From contig CAZBWB010000001.1 of the NCBI GenBank assembly GCA_964495875.1, forward strand, positions 215,656-279,655: DNA of 64,000 bases, given 5' to 3'. This document shows, one piece after another, positions 14,245 to 61,089 of the stretch; position 1 is the first letter of the stretch; each line of letters starts with the position of its first letter. A program made the translations under genes and the position numbers. A model generated the notes under the pieces. That model saw only the letters and a program-made list of their open reading frames with translations, was not told the DNA's origin and did not search any database. This stretch comes from Candidatus Woesearchaeota archaeon (GTDB taxonomy: Archaea > Nanobdellota > Nanobdellia > Pacearchaeales > GW2011-AR1).

Positions 14245-14889
14245 ATGTTTAAGAAGAAAGAATGCAGAAAATGCGGAAAGAAAATTAACGAAAAATACAG
14301 ATTTTGTCCTTATTGCGGTTCAACAGACAATAAATTTGATGATGAAAACTGGGGCATGCTTGGAAGAGATGATTTTATGAATCCTAACAATTTCCAGTTA
14401 CCTTCTGGATTTAACATGATATTTAATTCTTTAATGAAAAATTTAAGCAAACAATTGAATAATATGTATGATGAATCAAGAAAAAATTCTGACAGCAAAC
14501 TAAAAAAAGAGGGAATGAGTATAAGTATTTCAACTTCAGGAAATAATCCCCCCAAGATAAAGATAAATTCTTTCGGAAATGAAAAGGGAGAGATAAAAAA
14601 AATACCCGGACAATTCTCCAAGGAAAATGCAAAAAAATTTGTTTCACTTTCAAAAAAAGAGCCTAAAACAAACATAAGAAGATTATCTAATAGAGTGATT
14701 TATGAAATGGAAATCCCTAGTGTGAAGTCATTAAAGGATATATCTATAATAAAACTTGAAAACAGTATTGAAATAAAAGCCATTGGAAAAAACAAAGCAT
14801 ATTTCAAGCGAATACCTGTGAATCTGCCGATAATCAATTATGATTTATCAGAAGGAAAATTAATTCTTGAGTTTAATTTAAAAAATTAA
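14245..14889 (+). CDS. zinc-ribbon plus Hsp20/alpha-crystallin-like protein
   Basis: CRKC...CPYC N-terminus; C-terminal beta-sandwich pattern ending EGKLILEF. Confidence 0.7.
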   Translation: MFKKKECRKCGKKINEKYRFCPYCGSTDNKFDDENWGMLGRDDFMNPNNFQLPSGFNMIFNSLMKNLSKQLNNMYDESRKNSDSKLKKEGMSISISTSGNNPPKIKINSFGNEKGEIKKIPGQFSKENAKKFVSLSKKEPKTNIRRLSNRVIYEMEIPSVKSLKDISIIKLENSIEIKAIGKNKAYFKRIPVNLPIINYDLSEGKLILEFNLKN

Positions 14890-15039
14890 TGAGCCTGCAC
14901 GGATTTGAACCGTGGACCCCTACCTAGCTGAAGTTAAGATAATATCACCAATTTATCTCAACTATATCAGAATCACCTTCTGTCTAATTTTTTCATTAGG
15001 ACAGAATGTAGTGCTCTAACCAGGCTGAGCTACAGGCTC
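14890..15039 (-). tRNA. tRNA-Ile(GAT) with two introns (14972..15007 at 30/31, 36 nt; 14926..14964 at 37/38, 39 nt)
   Basis: Acceptor GAGCCTG/CAGGCTC, D-stem GCTC/GAGC, T-arm CACGG-TTCAAAT-CCGTG. Removing two BHB-bounded introns gives a 75-nt tRNA with CTACT-CTGATAA-GGTAG. Confidence 0.9.
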
Positions 15040-15065
15040 ATCTAAATTCAAAGAGATGAGAATAT

Positions 15066-15776
15066 TTATAAGTTTTGCGAATCTAAAAATTTTTGATATT
15101 TTATTTTATGCTTGGGATTCTGAGGATTAATTAATTTCATAAATCTATGAAACATCTCAACTCCCCTAATAGTTATAACATAACTTCTTTGACGATTAAA
15201 TTTTTCATTGTATAATTGAGAATAACTCGTAACTCTCAGATTATAATTATTAAATATTTTTATTAGTTGTTTGGCCAATTTTTCAGATATTGTTGTTATA
15301 TATAAGCGAGGATATAATTTATTATTTTTCTTTTCTAAATAAATTCCTCCGTCTGTATCAAAAATTCCACGAATAATTGCTTTTTTTAGTCTATCATTTA
15401 TTAGAAAAATTTTAGGAATTTCTATATCAAATTTTTTTCCCAAAGGTAATCCCAATTTTTGTTTAAATTTGATAATACAATCTTTCCAAATTTGGAATCC
15501 AAAAACCCTAGTAGAAGCCATATCCCTCAAATTAATCTTAACTCCATATAATTTTTCAAAAAGAGGTTTAATCCTTGTTATATAGTGTTCTTTATCTTCT
15601 TCTATATGGCCTCTAAGTTGATAAAAGCCTTTTAATTTACCGCTGTTGTTATAATAATTCATACTCCCGTCTCCAATATGCCAACCAATCTCTTCTGCAA
15701 GTTCAGGAGTTATTTTCATATCAAAATAATGCTCTAAGAGTTTATAAAGATTAATACACGAACTTTTAAAAACCAA
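15066..15776 (-). CDS. free-standing two-motif LAGLIDADG homing endonuclease (likely start ATG 15719)
   Basis: Motifs IGWHIGDGS and IRGIFDTDG, both acidic catalytic positions intact; no intein splicing residues. Confidence 0.88.
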   Translation of the reverse strand: MVFKSSCINLYKLLEHYFDMKITPELAEEIGWHIGDGSMNYYNNSGKLKGFYQLRGHIEEDKEHYITRIKPLFEKLYGVKINLRDMASTRVFGFQIWKDCIIKFKQKLGLPLGKKFDIEIPKIFLINDRLKKAIIRGIFDTDGGIYLEKKNNKLYPRLYITTISEKLAKQLIKIFNNYNLRVTSYSQLYNEKFNRQRSYVITIRGVEMFHRFMKLINPQNPKHKIKYQKFLDSQNL

Positions 15777-25227: not shown

Positions 25228-25323
25228 ATGGTATGCGATTTTCATCAGAGGCAAATAAAAAATCGCTCCCCAGGATTCAAGAGGGAAGTTGACTGTCAAG
25301 AAACCGTAGGTGTCTTACAATGA
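25228..25323 (+). promoter_or_regulatory. structured GC-elevated leader / 31-codon uORF upstream of the KH gene
   Basis: Stem GCGATTTT/AAAATCGC, stem TCCC/GGGA, palindrome TTGAC-T-GTCAA; ORF 25228..25323 ends in an ATGA overlap. Confidence 0.4.
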
Positions 25324-25826
25324 GAAAGATCTATTCAGAAAAACTTCCAAGAATTTTAAAAAACAAAAAAAAGATTGAAGCAGAACTGAATGTTAAAATA
25401 ACTAACAGAGGAAAAGAGATTACAATACAGGGAAAGCCAGAGGACGAGTATATTGCTGAAAAAGTGATTGATGCATTGAATTTTGGTTTTCCTTTTTCAG
25501 ATGCATTAATGATAAAAAAAGAGGATTTTCTTTTTGAAATAATAAACATAAAAGAGCATACAAAGAGAAAAGATTTAGAAAGAATTCGGGCACGAATTAT
25601 TGGAACAAAAGGAAAAACCCTGAAAACTCTGTGTCAACTGACAAAATGTTTTTTTGAATTAAAGGATAATGAAGTAGGAATTATCGGTCCTCCAGAATAC
25701 ATTCAAAATGCCCAAAACTCCATTATTTCGATTATCAAAGGAACAAAACAGGCAAATGTTTATAGTTTTCTGGAAAAGCATCAGGTTAAGCCTGTTTTTG
25801 ATTTAGGATTGAAAAAAGAAAAATAA
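25320..25826 (+). CDS. KH-domain rRNA-processing protein (Pno1/Dim2 family)
   Basis: ALNFGF and RIRARIIGTKGKT (GxxG); position downstream of eif1a. Confidence 0.88.
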   Translation: MRKIYSEKLPRILKNKKKIEAELNVKITNRGKEITIQGKPEDEYIAEKVIDALNFGFPFSDALMIKKEDFLFEIINIKEHTKRKDLERIRARIIGTKGKTLKTLCQLTKCFFELKDNEVGIIGPPEYIQNAQNSIISIIKGTKQANVYSFLEKHQVKPVFDLGLKKEK

Positions 25827-25956
25827 TTGACATAATTCACTTCAAAAAATATTTTCTATATTAATTATCTATGATAACTCTGAGCAAAGCGAGGAGCAAA
25901 TTAAAGGTGGATGAGCGGGCAAACATTTAAATATAAAATTAAATTTCAGTTTTTAG

Positions 25957-26059
25957 GTCCCGGTAGCTCAGTTGGCAGAGCACATGGCTGTTAAAATTAT
26001 AATTTTTCAAGGAATTAATAGAAACCATGGTGTCAGAGGTTCGAGTCCTCTCCGGGACG
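25957..26059 (+). tRNA. tRNA-Asn(GTT) with a 30-nt intron (25994..26023) at 37/38
   Basis: GTCCCGG/CCGGGAC acceptor, CATGG-CTGTTA|A-CCATG anticodon arm, AGAGG-TTCGAGT-CCTCT T-arm. Confidence 0.93.
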
Positions 26060-26173
26060 TTGACGAGAACCTAGATTCGACGAGCAATGTTCATAAGCCT
26101 CGGCTCACAACAGAGAGCGAATGGGCTTGCGAGCTGTCCTCTCCGGGACGTTGGCAATCTTGTCTCCGGGACG
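26045..26173 (+). repeat. direct repeats of the tRNA-Asn 3' end (att-like)
   Basis: GTCCTCTCCGGGACGTTG is identical at 26045..26062 and 26136..26153; TCTCCGGGACG occurs again at 26163..26173. Confidence 0.9.
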
Positions 26174-26179
26174 CTCTGA

Positions 26180-27628
26180 TTATTTATGAATTCTTTTAGA
26201 AGTAATTGCTTGGATTAATTTCACAGCCATTGTTTTATGGGGAAAATATTTTTTCAAAATTTTAAGATTTTGGTCAACCCATTCTTTTCTTTTTGTATTG
26301 TTCCGAAGTATGCTGATAGTCTCATCTATTTTCTTTGCATTAATTTCGTAATTCGTAAGTGCTATAACTTTAAAATTATATTTTGCTATATCACTCTTAA
26401 AAACACCGTATTTGTAAATGACAGGTATAAGACCAGAAGCCAAAACTTCAAGAAGATTATTTCCAAAACCTTCAACTTCACTAAAATAAGTTGAAAACCC
26501 TCCAAGTTTTGCAAAAATCTTTGGATACTCTTCAAAAGTCAGATGTGTTTTGAAATAATAATCCTCTGCAAAAATAAGAAATAAATTCTTGGTATTATAC
26601 TCTTTTCTGAATTTTCTGTTGAGCTGAAGAAGCTTTCTTCTTGTGCTGTCTGCCGTATGACCTGAAACCAAGAAATATATCGCTTTGTAATATTTTCTTT
26701 TTCTCAACTGATTAAGCAAAGCATAGCAGTATTCAAGAGCAAAATCAATTCTCTTTCTGCTGACTAGTCTTGTATGTTGCAGGCAGAATAAAACATCTGA
26801 AAGTTGAAGATGTTTTTTCTTAAGTAAATTTCTTATCTTAAAATCCTCTATAAATGCATTAACTCTGTCATTGAATTTGTCTGATTGAAGATCTCTAAAT
26901 TTGTTTATAAAAACATCAGTCGTGTTATAAACAACACCATGATTCATCTCCATTTGATGATAAAAACCAGGATTTCTCTTATCGAGTTTCTTAAAATATT
27001 TCTTTGCATTCTTGAACTGCAAACTGTTGATGAAAAAAATATATTCAACAAAATTCCCAGGAACTCCTTGAATTAAATAATTTTCAACATCCTTTGGAGG
27101 ATTGACAAAACTTTTTCTCTCTAAATGAGAATCATGCCACCACAAAATATATTTGGGAGTTCTTTTTCCTTTATTTATCATATCTCTATAATACCTGCTT
27201 AAAGCTACAGAACCGATAAAATTAATGGGATGGGAAGTATTATGTGCAATTAATACATCTATTCTTTTTTTTCTTATAAACTCTCCAATAACTTTTTGAG
27301 CTTCATTAATCGCCTTTTCAATCTTCTCACTCATCTCTCCCCCATAGCCAATTTGATATTTATCTATCATAAGCCTGTTAATCTCATGATTATTCCATAG
27401 TATATCCCTGACAATAATCCTCGGAGAATTTATTTTAGATTTTCCAATCAAATAAAAAATATTTCTTTTGGGAACTTTCAAATATTTGTTAAGAACTCCT
27501 TCAATCTGTTTCATAACAATTGAAACTCCTTCAGCATCTCCGAATAGAGAGTGAATCATTCCATATCTCAAACGAGGAATATCTTTTTTCTTGAATTGTT
27601 GAGCCTCTTTTTTAAAAATAGTCAGCAT
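26180..27628 (-). CDS. GT-B fold glycosyltransferase-like protein (GT4-like)
   Basis: N-terminal GDAEGVSIV, TRLVSRKRID and the C-terminal GT4-type EGFGNNLLEVLASGL. Confidence 0.72.
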   Translation of the reverse strand: MLTIFKKEAQQFKKKDIPRLRYGMIHSLFGDAEGVSIVMKQIEGVLNKYLKVPKRNIFYLIGKSKINSPRIIVRDILWNNHEINRLMIDKYQIGYGGEMSEKIEKAINEAQKVIGEFIRKKRIDVLIAHNTSHPINFIGSVALSRYYRDMINKGKRTPKYILWWHDSHLERKSFVNPPKDVENYLIQGVPGNFVEYIFFINSLQFKNAKKYFKKLDKRNPGFYHQMEMNHGVVYNTTDVFINKFRDLQSDKFNDRVNAFIEDFKIRNLLKKKHLQLSDVLFCLQHTRLVSRKRIDFALEYCYALLNQLRKRKYYKAIYFLVSGHTADSTRRKLLQLNRKFRKEYNTKNLFLIFAEDYYFKTHLTFEEYPKIFAKLGGFSTYFSEVEGFGNNLLEVLASGLIPVIYKYGVFKSDIAKYNFKVIALTNYEINAKKIDETISILRNNTKRKEWVDQNLKILKKYFPHKTMAVKLIQAITSKRIHK

Positions 27629-41481: not shown

Positions 41482-41604
41482 CGGGCTCGCGAGGATTCGA
41501 ACCCCGATTAATCGGTTTCTCACAAACTTCGTTCGATATTATTAAACATCGCTTACGAACTCGCTCGCCGAAGCCGATTGTGCTATCCATTACACCACAA
41601 GCCC
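41482..41604 (-). tRNA. tRNA-Arg(TCG) with a 51-nt intron (41517..41567) at 37/38
   Basis: GGGCTTG/CGAGCCC acceptor, ATCGG-CTTCGG|A-CCGAT anticodon arm, CGGGG-TTCGAAT-CCTCG T-arm. Confidence 0.92.
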
Positions 41605-61000: not shown

Positions 61001-61089
61001 GTCTCTGTAGCTCAGAGTCCAGAGCGCTGCTCTCATGATCATTTTTATGAGAAAGGCAGAGGTCGAGGGTTAAAATCCCTCCAGAGACA
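61001..61089 (+). tRNA. tRNA with CAT anticodon (elongator Met or Ile2) with a 16-nt intron (61038..61053)
   Basis: GTCTCTG/CAGAGAC acceptor, CTGCT-CTCATG|A-GGCAG anticodon arm, BHB helix CTCA/TGAG, T-arm GAGGG-TTAAAAT-CCCTC. Confidence 0.85.

Follow-up and report, generated by a model that had tools for sequence, protein, structure and literature searches.

How does a short insert without genes come to lie between two copies of the 3' end of the same tRNA gene? The question is raised by tRNA-Asn(GUU) in a 64,000-nt stretch of DNA from a Candidatus Woesearchaeota archaeon (GenBank contig CAZBWB010000001.1), here called the window. It corresponds to C1:215656-279655 of the source genome, which is 632 kb long in five contigs and has a GC content of 31%. 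The insert represents a hitherto undescribed family of small cassettes with an RNA-type structure and without genes, which stand behind tRNA genes. In this family, insertion-like polymorphism, duplication of the host gene from the T-loop to its end, polarity, arrays, and a conserved strand-specific fold that takes in the duplicated end are observed. With modest confidence, the cassette is probably a non-autonomous mobile element that targets tRNA tails and leaves an att-like duplication.

The tRNA-Asn locus and its repeated ends

The tRNA-Asn(GUU) gene occupies positions 25957-26059 on the plus strand and was recognized by Rfam model RF00005 (56.6 bits, model positions 1-71). Exon 1 (25957-25993) and exon 2 (26024-26059) are separated by a canonical intron of 30 nt at position 37/38 (25994-26023). 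The anticodon GUU was read by hand. Its stem CAUGG/CCAUG surrounds CUGUUA^…^A, and the bulge-helix-bulge (BHB) motif of the intron has the central helix CUGU/AUAG and the bulges UA^A and AA^A. Because of this intron the gene is overlooked by ARAGORN under default settings. With introns allowed the gene is found, and as the intron is then misplaced, the anticodon is miscalled as Ser(AGA).

The 18-nt sequence GTCCTCTCCGGGACGTTG, composed of tRNA-Asn nt 59-73 and TTG, has exactly two occurrences in the window, at 26045-26062 and 26136-26153, both on the plus strand and 91 nt apart. None is expected by chance, and a match was obtained in 0/100 dinucleotide-preserving shuffles. The first copy is the functional 3' end of the gene (26045-26059 plus TTG) and is attL-like; the second, also exact, is a stranded older end and is attR-like. 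Behind it, the relic of an older unit (26151-26173, plus strand) consists of TTG-GCAA-T-CTTG (26151-26162) and a third, partial copy of the tRNA end, TCTCCGGGACG, which is 11 nt long, corresponds to tRNA nt 63-73 and is placed at 26163-26173. According to sequence comparison, TTGGCAATCTTG, which precedes this third copy, is derivable from the intact unit by three internal deletions. The native trailer CTCTGATTATTTATG comes after the third copy.

Between the two exact copies there is an intact cassette of the kind called type-1 here (26060-26135, plus strand; G000:C1:241715-241790; 54.3 bits with the covariance model R1 introduced below). It opens with TTG, followed by GAC (26062-26064), the proposed 5' strand of a helix P0, and by GA (26065-26066). 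Then come hairpin P1 (26067-26078; GAACC-TA-GATTC with one C.A mismatch), GACGA (26079-26083), hairpin P2 (26084-26130; GCAA-U-GUUCAU ... AUGGGC-UUGC), GAGC (26131-26134) and a single T (26135). The second tRNA-end copy starts with G-U-C, the pairing partner of the cassette GAC, and P0 of the window copy amounts to just GAC/GUC and a G-C pair. This copy is somewhat divergent within the family, with 54 bits against a maximum of 91 for R1. The insert is 73-76 nt long, and no open reading frame (ORF) was found in its 73 nt.

The exact repeat, its spacing and the 11-nt third copy had already been noticed in a first-pass annotation made from the letters of the window alone and are confirmed here. 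So is its remark that the insert is GC-rich on an AT-rich background, with 51% GC against 31% in the window. It had also stated that the window contains no integrase, and this holds: the sole tyrosine recombinase of the genome, XerA (C1:385501-386328; NF040815, 238 bits), lies outside the window, about 144 kb away.

A family of cassettes behind tRNA genes

When the 73-nt insert was searched by BLAST within its own genome, it matched only itself. In another genome of the same genus (G001), the first 31 nt of the insert were matched at a contig end, where tRNA-Gly(UCC) is followed by an insert of about 89 nt and then by an 18-nt copy of the end of that tRNA. Both inserts contain GAGAACCTAGGTTCGACGAGCAATGTTC and GCTTGCGAGC. 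A motif search gave matches in 6/401 genomes of the order with up to 3 mismatches, in 4 named Woesearchaeota/Nanoarchaeota contigs of metagenome-assembled genomes (MAGs) and in 55 metagenome contigs. About 12 of the latter are chance matches in GC-rich coding DNA; about 40 are bona fide copies, all of them behind tRNAs. The covariance model R1, built from 38 unique copies (alignment A1), matches 115/401 genomes (29%) of the same GTDB family, distributed over 75/191 genera with 0-11 copies per genome. In a 301-genome sample of the phylum, R1 matches were confined to genomes of this family, and none was found outside it.

Elements of the family are about 70-100 nt long, with a cassette of about 75-90 nt, and always have the orientation of the tRNA. 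A same-strand tRNA detectable by ARAGORN is located within 330 nt upstream in 73/85 unique elements. Seven of the remaining 12 have less than 150 nt of upstream sequence (contig ends), and the other five are mostly array members or stand behind a tRNA missed by ARAGORN. The host tRNAs include Asn, Gln (CUG, UUG), Leu (UAA, UAG, CAA, AAG), Gly, Ser, Cys, Glu, and Arg. The order of parts is fixed: a complete tRNA, a linker, the cassette core and a copy of the host tRNA end. The core reads (N)GAY-GA-[P1: GAACC-loop-GGUUC]-GA-C-GA-[P2]-GA-GC-(0-3 nt), and 25 positions are at least 85% conserved across the family. The spare end runs from nt 59-62 to nt 73 of the host tRNA, with 0-10 nt of the trailer added. 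Compared with host nt 59-73, at least 14 of 15 positions are identical in 32/74 elements (15/15 in 17/74 and 14/15 in 15/74); identity begins at nt 59-62 and falls continuously down to decayed copies that are no longer recognizable.

The linker is 3-225 nt long (median 32) and often has a small hairpin of its own. A small hairpin was also seen on the other side of tRNA-Asn in the window, about 60 nt upstream of the gene (25880-25898, plus strand; CUCU-GAGCAAAGCGA-GGAG). Its 11-nt loop GAGCAAAGCGA, a GA-GC AAA GC-GA mini-motif with this sole exact occurrence in the genome, caps linker hairpins of tRNA-Gln cassettes in other genomes (L053, L100, L114).

In Rfam, with 4227 covariance models searched at gathering and at lax E-values, tRNA was the sole match. 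The motif strings were not found in the searchable literature, searches for ribozymes or elements at tRNAs of DPANN archaea gave nothing relevant, and a recent survey of Nanobdellota genomes has no mention of such elements. Within the tools and libraries used, three things are new: the family of cassettes, the RNA-type three-way junction and the absence of a cognate enzyme.

The size and conservation of the family bear on the simplest explanation of the locus, namely that the insert is a random 73-nt remnant left when a large integrative element (island, virus, or plasmid) was excised or deleted, or else an assembly artefact. Directly repeated tRNA 3' ends are the typical mark of att sites, and the first-pass annotation had considered an integrative element reduced to almost nothing. 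That idea is unsupported: the insert is a whole unit and agrees in size with the other members of a conserved family, present in at least 115 genomes and behind many different tRNAs, which leaves a scar extremely improbable. As the same architecture is found in more than 100 independent assemblies, an artefact is very unlikely too, and the insert is unique in the genome save for one divergent copy behind tRNA-Gly(GCC), hence no collapsed repeat is involved.

Empty sites are found close by. In two genomes of the same genus (G001 and G002) tRNA-Asn has neither cassette nor intron, and in G002 the same gene for a KH-domain protein precedes it as in the window; the arrangement is thus not a fixed trailer in the relatives. 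The host tRNAs differ within the genus, being Asn and Gly-GCC in the source genome and Gly-UCC in G001. The second type-1 cassette of the source genome, found by the covariance model only, lies outside the window behind tRNA-Gly(GCC) (C1:92280-92353, locus 92276-92400). It has a 6-bp P1 (GAAUCC/GGGUUC). A second unit behind it is truncated (GACGAGAACC), and the tRNA end appears for a third time, with 9 nt, before a T6 terminator. Here as at tRNA-Asn, the last copy is followed by the native trailer or terminator. In other genomes, one P2 subfamily with the same linker hairpin AUGCAAUCUUUAGAUUGCA stands behind Leu-UAG, Leu-UAA, Leu-CAA, and Cys, and genome G508 has three subfamilies behind six tRNAs. 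The alternative offered by the first-pass annotation, a tRNA-targeted miniature element with repeated integration, fits the many host tRNAs, the duplication of each host's own end, the empty sites of the same genus and the derivable decayed unit.

Tandem units are frequent (L029, L071, L083, L091, L098/L138, L135) and typically truncated at the distal side, and contigs or scaffolds often break within the arrays. Truncated second units like the relic in the window are present at tRNA-Gly(GCC) of the same genome and at L029, L052, L083, and L091; at L052, one deletion fuses the two CGAGCA repeats. Exact repeats of single units are 13-25 nt long with the right boundary at +0 to +10, and longer ones occur only in whole-unit tandems. 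At L062 the spare end resembles the end of another tRNA-Gln isoacceptor, and this sequence likeness suggests that a unit may travel with its right-hand fragment.

Cassettes of other types have the same layout and occur in the same arrays, with different hairpin modules and often a copy of the host T-arm in front. In the source genome, duplicated ends are found behind 4 of about 36 tRNAs, two with type-1 cassettes and two with a different type. The latter are outside the window behind two further tRNAs, at C1:25301-25560 (minus strand) and C1:188426-188760 (plus strand); a copy of the host T-arm in front is followed by …ACUUCAA…UUGAAUGUCCCAGAAA…UUUCUGAG and then by the tRNA-end copy. An N run marks a scaffold gap within the array at C1:188426-188760. 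Behind tRNA-Leu, Gln, and Arg, type-1 cassettes alternate in arrays with inserts of at least four other types (L072, L052, L091, L138, L112, L108, L105). Several of these contain the host T-arm in both inverted and direct orientation, as in GAACCTGCG-A-CGCAGGTTTTCGAATCC. At L087, mini hairpins are inserted, and behind each of them no more than the final 6 nt of the tRNA are repeated.

The gene for the universal archaeal KH-domain protein (25320-25826, plus strand; arCOG04150, 115 bits) lies upstream of tRNA-Asn in the window, and the two are syntenic in many genera. On the downstream side, the minus strand encodes a 482-aa protein (26180-27628), for which only a weak match of glycosyltransferase type was found (50.6 bits with the mannosylglucosylglycerate synthase model, whose cut-off is 640).

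Fold of the cassette and the spare tRNA end

The first four pairs of P1 are invariant, while C-G to U-A changes occur at the fifth. Its loop varies from 1 to 5 nt (UA, UGAA, UAUA, GA, and others), and P1 is therefore a hairpin and not a duplex binding site of fixed spacing. The sequence of P2 is specific to each subfamily, and the hairpin is always closed by GCAA/UUGN, with an outer helix of about 10-15 bp. Compensatory changes are seen in P2 pairs 2-4 (CG 64, UA 6, AU 4, UG 4; AU 70, GC 11), and the first pair is loose (GC 37, GU 16, other 30). The covariation score of P2 exceeds those of all 500 shuffles, and pairing drops from 94% to 25-59% when the partners are slid, although the alignment behind the pair counts was fitted to the model and the counts lean toward structure. 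RNAalifold on the MAFFT alignment recovers P1 alone and P2 is misaligned between subfamilies; P2 was therefore assessed by per-sequence folds, strand asymmetry and model-based alignment. The tRNA-sense strand of P2 is more stable than the antisense strand in 36/38 elements (-12.7 vs. -8.2 kcal/mol, p = 1.5e-7), and 15% of the pairs in the sense-strand folds are G.U. From this asymmetry in predicted stability, the fold appears to be selected on one strand, either as a transcript or as sense single-stranded DNA.

Ahead of the first GA, the bases GAY are complementary to R59-U60-C61 at the beginning of the tRNA copy, and a further pair is possible between G6 and the C of GAGC, which is nearly invariant. 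The pyrimidine Y follows the tRNA base at position 59: GAC accompanies G59 in 10/11 and GAU accompanies A59 in 41/43 cases (Fisher p = 3e-8, with kinship ignored). The pattern crosses P2 subfamilies and hosts; in subfamily C, for instance, GAU is found at Leu but GAC at Cys. In view of this covariation, the spare tRNA end is predicted to belong to a three-way junction P0/P1/P2, with the junction strands A / GACGA / GAG. In about one quarter of the copies P0 is 6-7 bp long and identical to the host T-stem (L083 CCAGGAU/AUCCUGG, L045, L087, L081), so that cassette and flanks together resemble a T-arm in which a three-way junction has taken the place of the loop. This conserved, strand-specific fold with the start of the spare end included was beyond the view of the first-pass annotation.

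The junction invites comparison with known RNAs. Like the type III hammerhead, it is a three-way junction, and GAYGA-G...C-GA or GACGA-G...N-GA would correspond to positions G5-A13. One reading considered is a ribozyme of a new kind, either self-cleaving or ligating, or else a scaffold like that of guide RNAs, by which T-loop insertion would be driven: the 5' GGAY would recognize R59-U60-C61-C62, and the 3' tail (nt 62-73) would target the tRNA gene or its transcript. The junction strands of 1, 5, and 3 nt resemble the hammerhead ones, with G5 A6 N7 G8 A9, G10.1-C11.1, and G12 A13 present; P0 covaries with the target base 59, the structure is selected on the tRNA-sense strand, and no protein partner was found. 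The hammerhead positions C3, U4, A14, and the pair A15.1-U16.1 are missing, however, and no hammerhead or other Rfam ribozyme model was matched even at E <= 10 on the window copy or at E <= 5 on four canonical copies. Moreover, to bring an insertion made in RNA back into DNA a reverse transcriptase is required; this enzyme was not found in the source genome and shows no correlation with the cassette, and TnpB is rare. We regard an RNA active in this manner as quite improbable. As for the hammerhead itself, two registers were tried and each has about 70% of the core and fails at essential positions.

The k-turn is another likeness, with C-NNN-GA...GA and a tolerant 3b.3n pair. In the cassette the signature comprises C19-G8, GAC, GA/GA and the pair G25.N102 (GC 18, GU 8, GG 10, GA 2). 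As the non-bulged strand is interrupted, the sequence could be a k-junction at best. Readings as C/D box or H/ACA RNA were rejected, there being no D box and no ACA box.

The resemblance to a T-arm with a replaced loop raises the question of whether the cassette is a T-loop intron or an intermediate of intron gain, in which the second tRNA-end copy would form the acceptor and T stems and the first copy and the cassette would be spliced out. In several copies the 5' strand of P0 is the 5' strand of the host T-stem (L083 CCAGG, L045 GUAGG, L081 CCCAG), and introns are abundant in the source genome, being found in about two thirds of the tRNAs detected. A complete, uninterrupted tRNA nevertheless always stands ahead of the cassette, no copy was found with the cassette directly within a tRNA, and a BHB cannot be drawn across the two boundaries, where UUCG/CGAG is shifted by one position, the GGGAGC variants do not fit and an inner helix is lacking. 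An intron of this kind is very improbable. Several registers at 58/59 and 59/60 were also inspected by hand for a BHB, and none gives a 3-4-3 motif, nor is there one for the boundaries 58/59 and GAGC^59', in contrast to the 37/38 intron of the same gene.

The abundance of introns is seen in the window itself. All four of its tRNA genes have them, namely those at 14889-15040 (minus), 25957-26059 (plus), 41482-41604 (minus), and 61001-61089 (plus), with introns of roughly 16-75 nt; for this reason default ARAGORN finds no tRNA in the window. When introns are allowed, several anticodons are miscalled, Asn as Ser-AGA and one as selenocysteine (SeC). A free-standing 236-aa LAGLIDADG_3 protein (15066-15776, minus strand; PF14528, 34 bits) is encoded next to the tRNA at 14889-15040, its gene ending 26 nt upstream on the same strand, and another free-standing LAGLIDADG frame is found beside tRNA-Gly(UCC) (G000:C1:398066-398248). 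Homing endonuclease genes beside tRNAs may be part of the same tRNA-remodelling biology.

Proposed mobilization and comparison with known systems

How could a cassette enter a tRNA gene and leave it whole? In the mobile-element reading, a unit of linker, cassette and tRNA-end fragment would enter by recombination within the segment from the T-loop to the 3' end (nt 59-73). Entry would restore an intact tRNA end beside the gene body (attL-like) and strand the previous end downstream (attR-like), and because a new end is regenerated each time, the essential tRNA gene would never be broken. Arrays could grow and shrink by repeated entry and by unequal crossover between direct repeats, and older units would be eroded by deletions between short repeats such as CGAGCA. 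The enzyme would act in trans. As no T-run separates the tRNA from the cassette in the source genome, the two are probably transcribed together there. The junction may then either sequester the spare 3' end from competition with the real acceptor and T arms, or provide a platform recognized by the mobilizing machinery.

A candidate enzyme was sought by comparing the proteins of 14 cassette-rich and 14 cassette-free genomes, a comparison in which the incompleteness of MAGs weakens negative results. Y1 transposase (PF01797) was present in 3/14 carriers and 7/14 non-carriers and reverse transcriptase (RVT_1) in 4/14 and 7/14, respectively, and neither was found in the source genome. Cas1 (PF01867) was found in 0/14 carriers and 0/14 non-carriers, the same search having detected it in 7/14 control genomes. 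TnpB (PF07282, above the curated cut-off) was present in 2/14 carriers and 1/14 non-carriers, and LAGLIDADG_3 in 10/14 and 7/14. Tyrosine recombinases occur in most carriers and non-carriers alike and do not track the cassette. Across different hosts, no protein gene is found repeatedly next to the cassette; the neighbours that recur are those syntenic with each tRNA. Since no co-occurring enzyme was found, the mobilizing factor is a housekeeping activity, an unrecognized protein, an outside supply from a host or virus, or the RNA itself.

These enzyme results weigh against the mobile-element reading, and further points have to be set beside them. The motif had 0 matches in viral contigs, and no viral or plasmid carrier or excised circle was found. 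A DNA circle of 91 bp is physically awkward as a recombination substrate, and the variable length of the duplication (13-25 nt) argues against a fixed staggered cut. On the side of the fold, the helix AAGCCU/GGGCUU around GCUC/GAGC, which the first-pass annotation had described for the insert, is present in the minimum-free-energy fold, but that fold of the window copy alone is no better than shuffles (z = -0.89). P0 helix length did not reach significance in a permutation test (p = 0.17-0.35), as complementarity between GGAU and AUCC is generic, and the statistics for Y and position 59 ignore phylogeny. Finally, at copies with a decayed spare tRNA end the conservation of the 25 core positions is still 93-97%, a figure ascertained with the covariance model, and this suggests an RNA function beyond mere mobility. 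The attL/attR interpretation of the first-pass annotation is in agreement with the end repeats and the empty sites, and its att/integrase mechanism is a candidate for which no matching recombinase was found.

The conservation of the core is what would be expected of a small RNA or processing module of benefit to the host, such as an L7Ae-binding k-junction, a trailer stabilizer or a processing or termination signal. The module would be co-transcribed with the tRNA, the spare end would be held within the fold, and spread between loci would be a by-product of recombination. In its favour are the almost invariant core across at least 115 genomes, even behind decayed ends; a strand-specific fold rich in G.U pairs; the covariation of Y with N59, which ties the tRNA fragment into the structure; the k-turn-like C19-GAC-GA...GA with its variable 3b.3n pair; and the absence of a terminator between tRNA and cassette in the source genome. 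Its distribution is patchy for a host function: it is present in 29% of the family genomes, copy numbers run from 0 to 11, sister genomes have it behind different tRNAs, and within the genus some sites are empty. At many loci a run of T4-T6 separates the tRNA from the cassette, and several unrelated cassette types share the layout. A host module is considered unlikely.

If the factor were the RNA itself, the cassettes would form a protein-less mobile class, in which the hammerhead- or k-junction-like RNA of the three-way junction reads the universal R59-U60-C61-C62 by its GGAY, directs its own insertion into the T-loop and copies the tRNA tail. Such a class, which would represent a previously unknown route to T-loop inserts, odd introns and split or duplicated ends in archaeal tRNA genes, is decidedly unlikely.

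Archaeal tRNA genes are known integration targets, and non-canonical introns as well as split and permuted forms are unusually common among them. The tRNA-tail cassette is an abundant and alignable system, with tiny gene-less inserts at the T-loop in about 30% of the genomes of one Woesearchaeales family and the tRNAs unbroken, and it offers a testable model for tRNA gene remodelling in ultra-small archaea as well as a candidate for a new structured RNA or ribozyme motif. It is also a warning for annotation, as default tRNA finders overlook such genes and arrays break assemblies.

Among known small elements, REPINs and PATEs (hairpin-forming miniature inverted-repeat transposable elements, MITEs, mobilized by Y1 HUH transposases of the IS200/IS605 or RAYT type) are likewise small, gene-less, hairpin-forming, strand-asymmetric and multi-copy in some genomes, with frequent C(GAA)G mini-hairpin loops. 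Unlike in REPINs, targeting is strictly to tRNA ends and Y1 does not co-occur with the cassette; IS200/IS605 insertion, moreover, makes no target duplication. An omega-RNA of TnpB or IscB was rejected, as PF07282 was found in 3/28 genomes with no correlation and no adjacent ORF. A transposon or MITE with target-site duplication was also rejected, since no terminal inverted repeats are visible and the duplication has no fixed length. Casposons and the repeat duplication of CRISPR share with the cassettes a long target duplication (mostly 15-18 nt), the tRNA 3' end as a target that is regenerated, and arrays; they differ from casposons in that none of the 28 genomes has Cas1, terminal inverted repeats are lacking and the duplication varies between 13 and 25 nt.

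Transposing non-canonical tRNA introns are known from Thermoproteales, and split and permuted tRNA genes are known as well. Similar to such introns, the cassettes are short, structured and non-coding, have a sequence common to different tRNAs and apparent mobility between them, are connected with the T-loop region (58-62) and occur in an intron-rich lineage; they differ in having no BHB and in standing in the trailer, the tRNA remaining uninterrupted as its 3' end is duplicated.

Integrative elements that target tRNA genes and are bounded by attL and attR are known in archaea from SSV-type and pTN3-type examples, and their integrase-less derivatives are named CIMEs (cis-mobilizable elements). 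With an insert that contains no ORF and a genome that encodes only XerA, membership in this group fails on the integrase. The cassette unit is also much smaller, at about 75-300 bp, gene-less and without an element-specific integrase, one cassette family uses many tRNAs, and the conserved strand-specific fold includes the right-hand repeat. Shared with integrative elements are direct repeats from the T-loop onward, regeneration of the gene, tandem accretion and empty sites in relatives. By this analogy, the closest functional counterpart of the cassette would be a tRNA-targeting integrative element stripped to its att arms, in the manner of a CIME.

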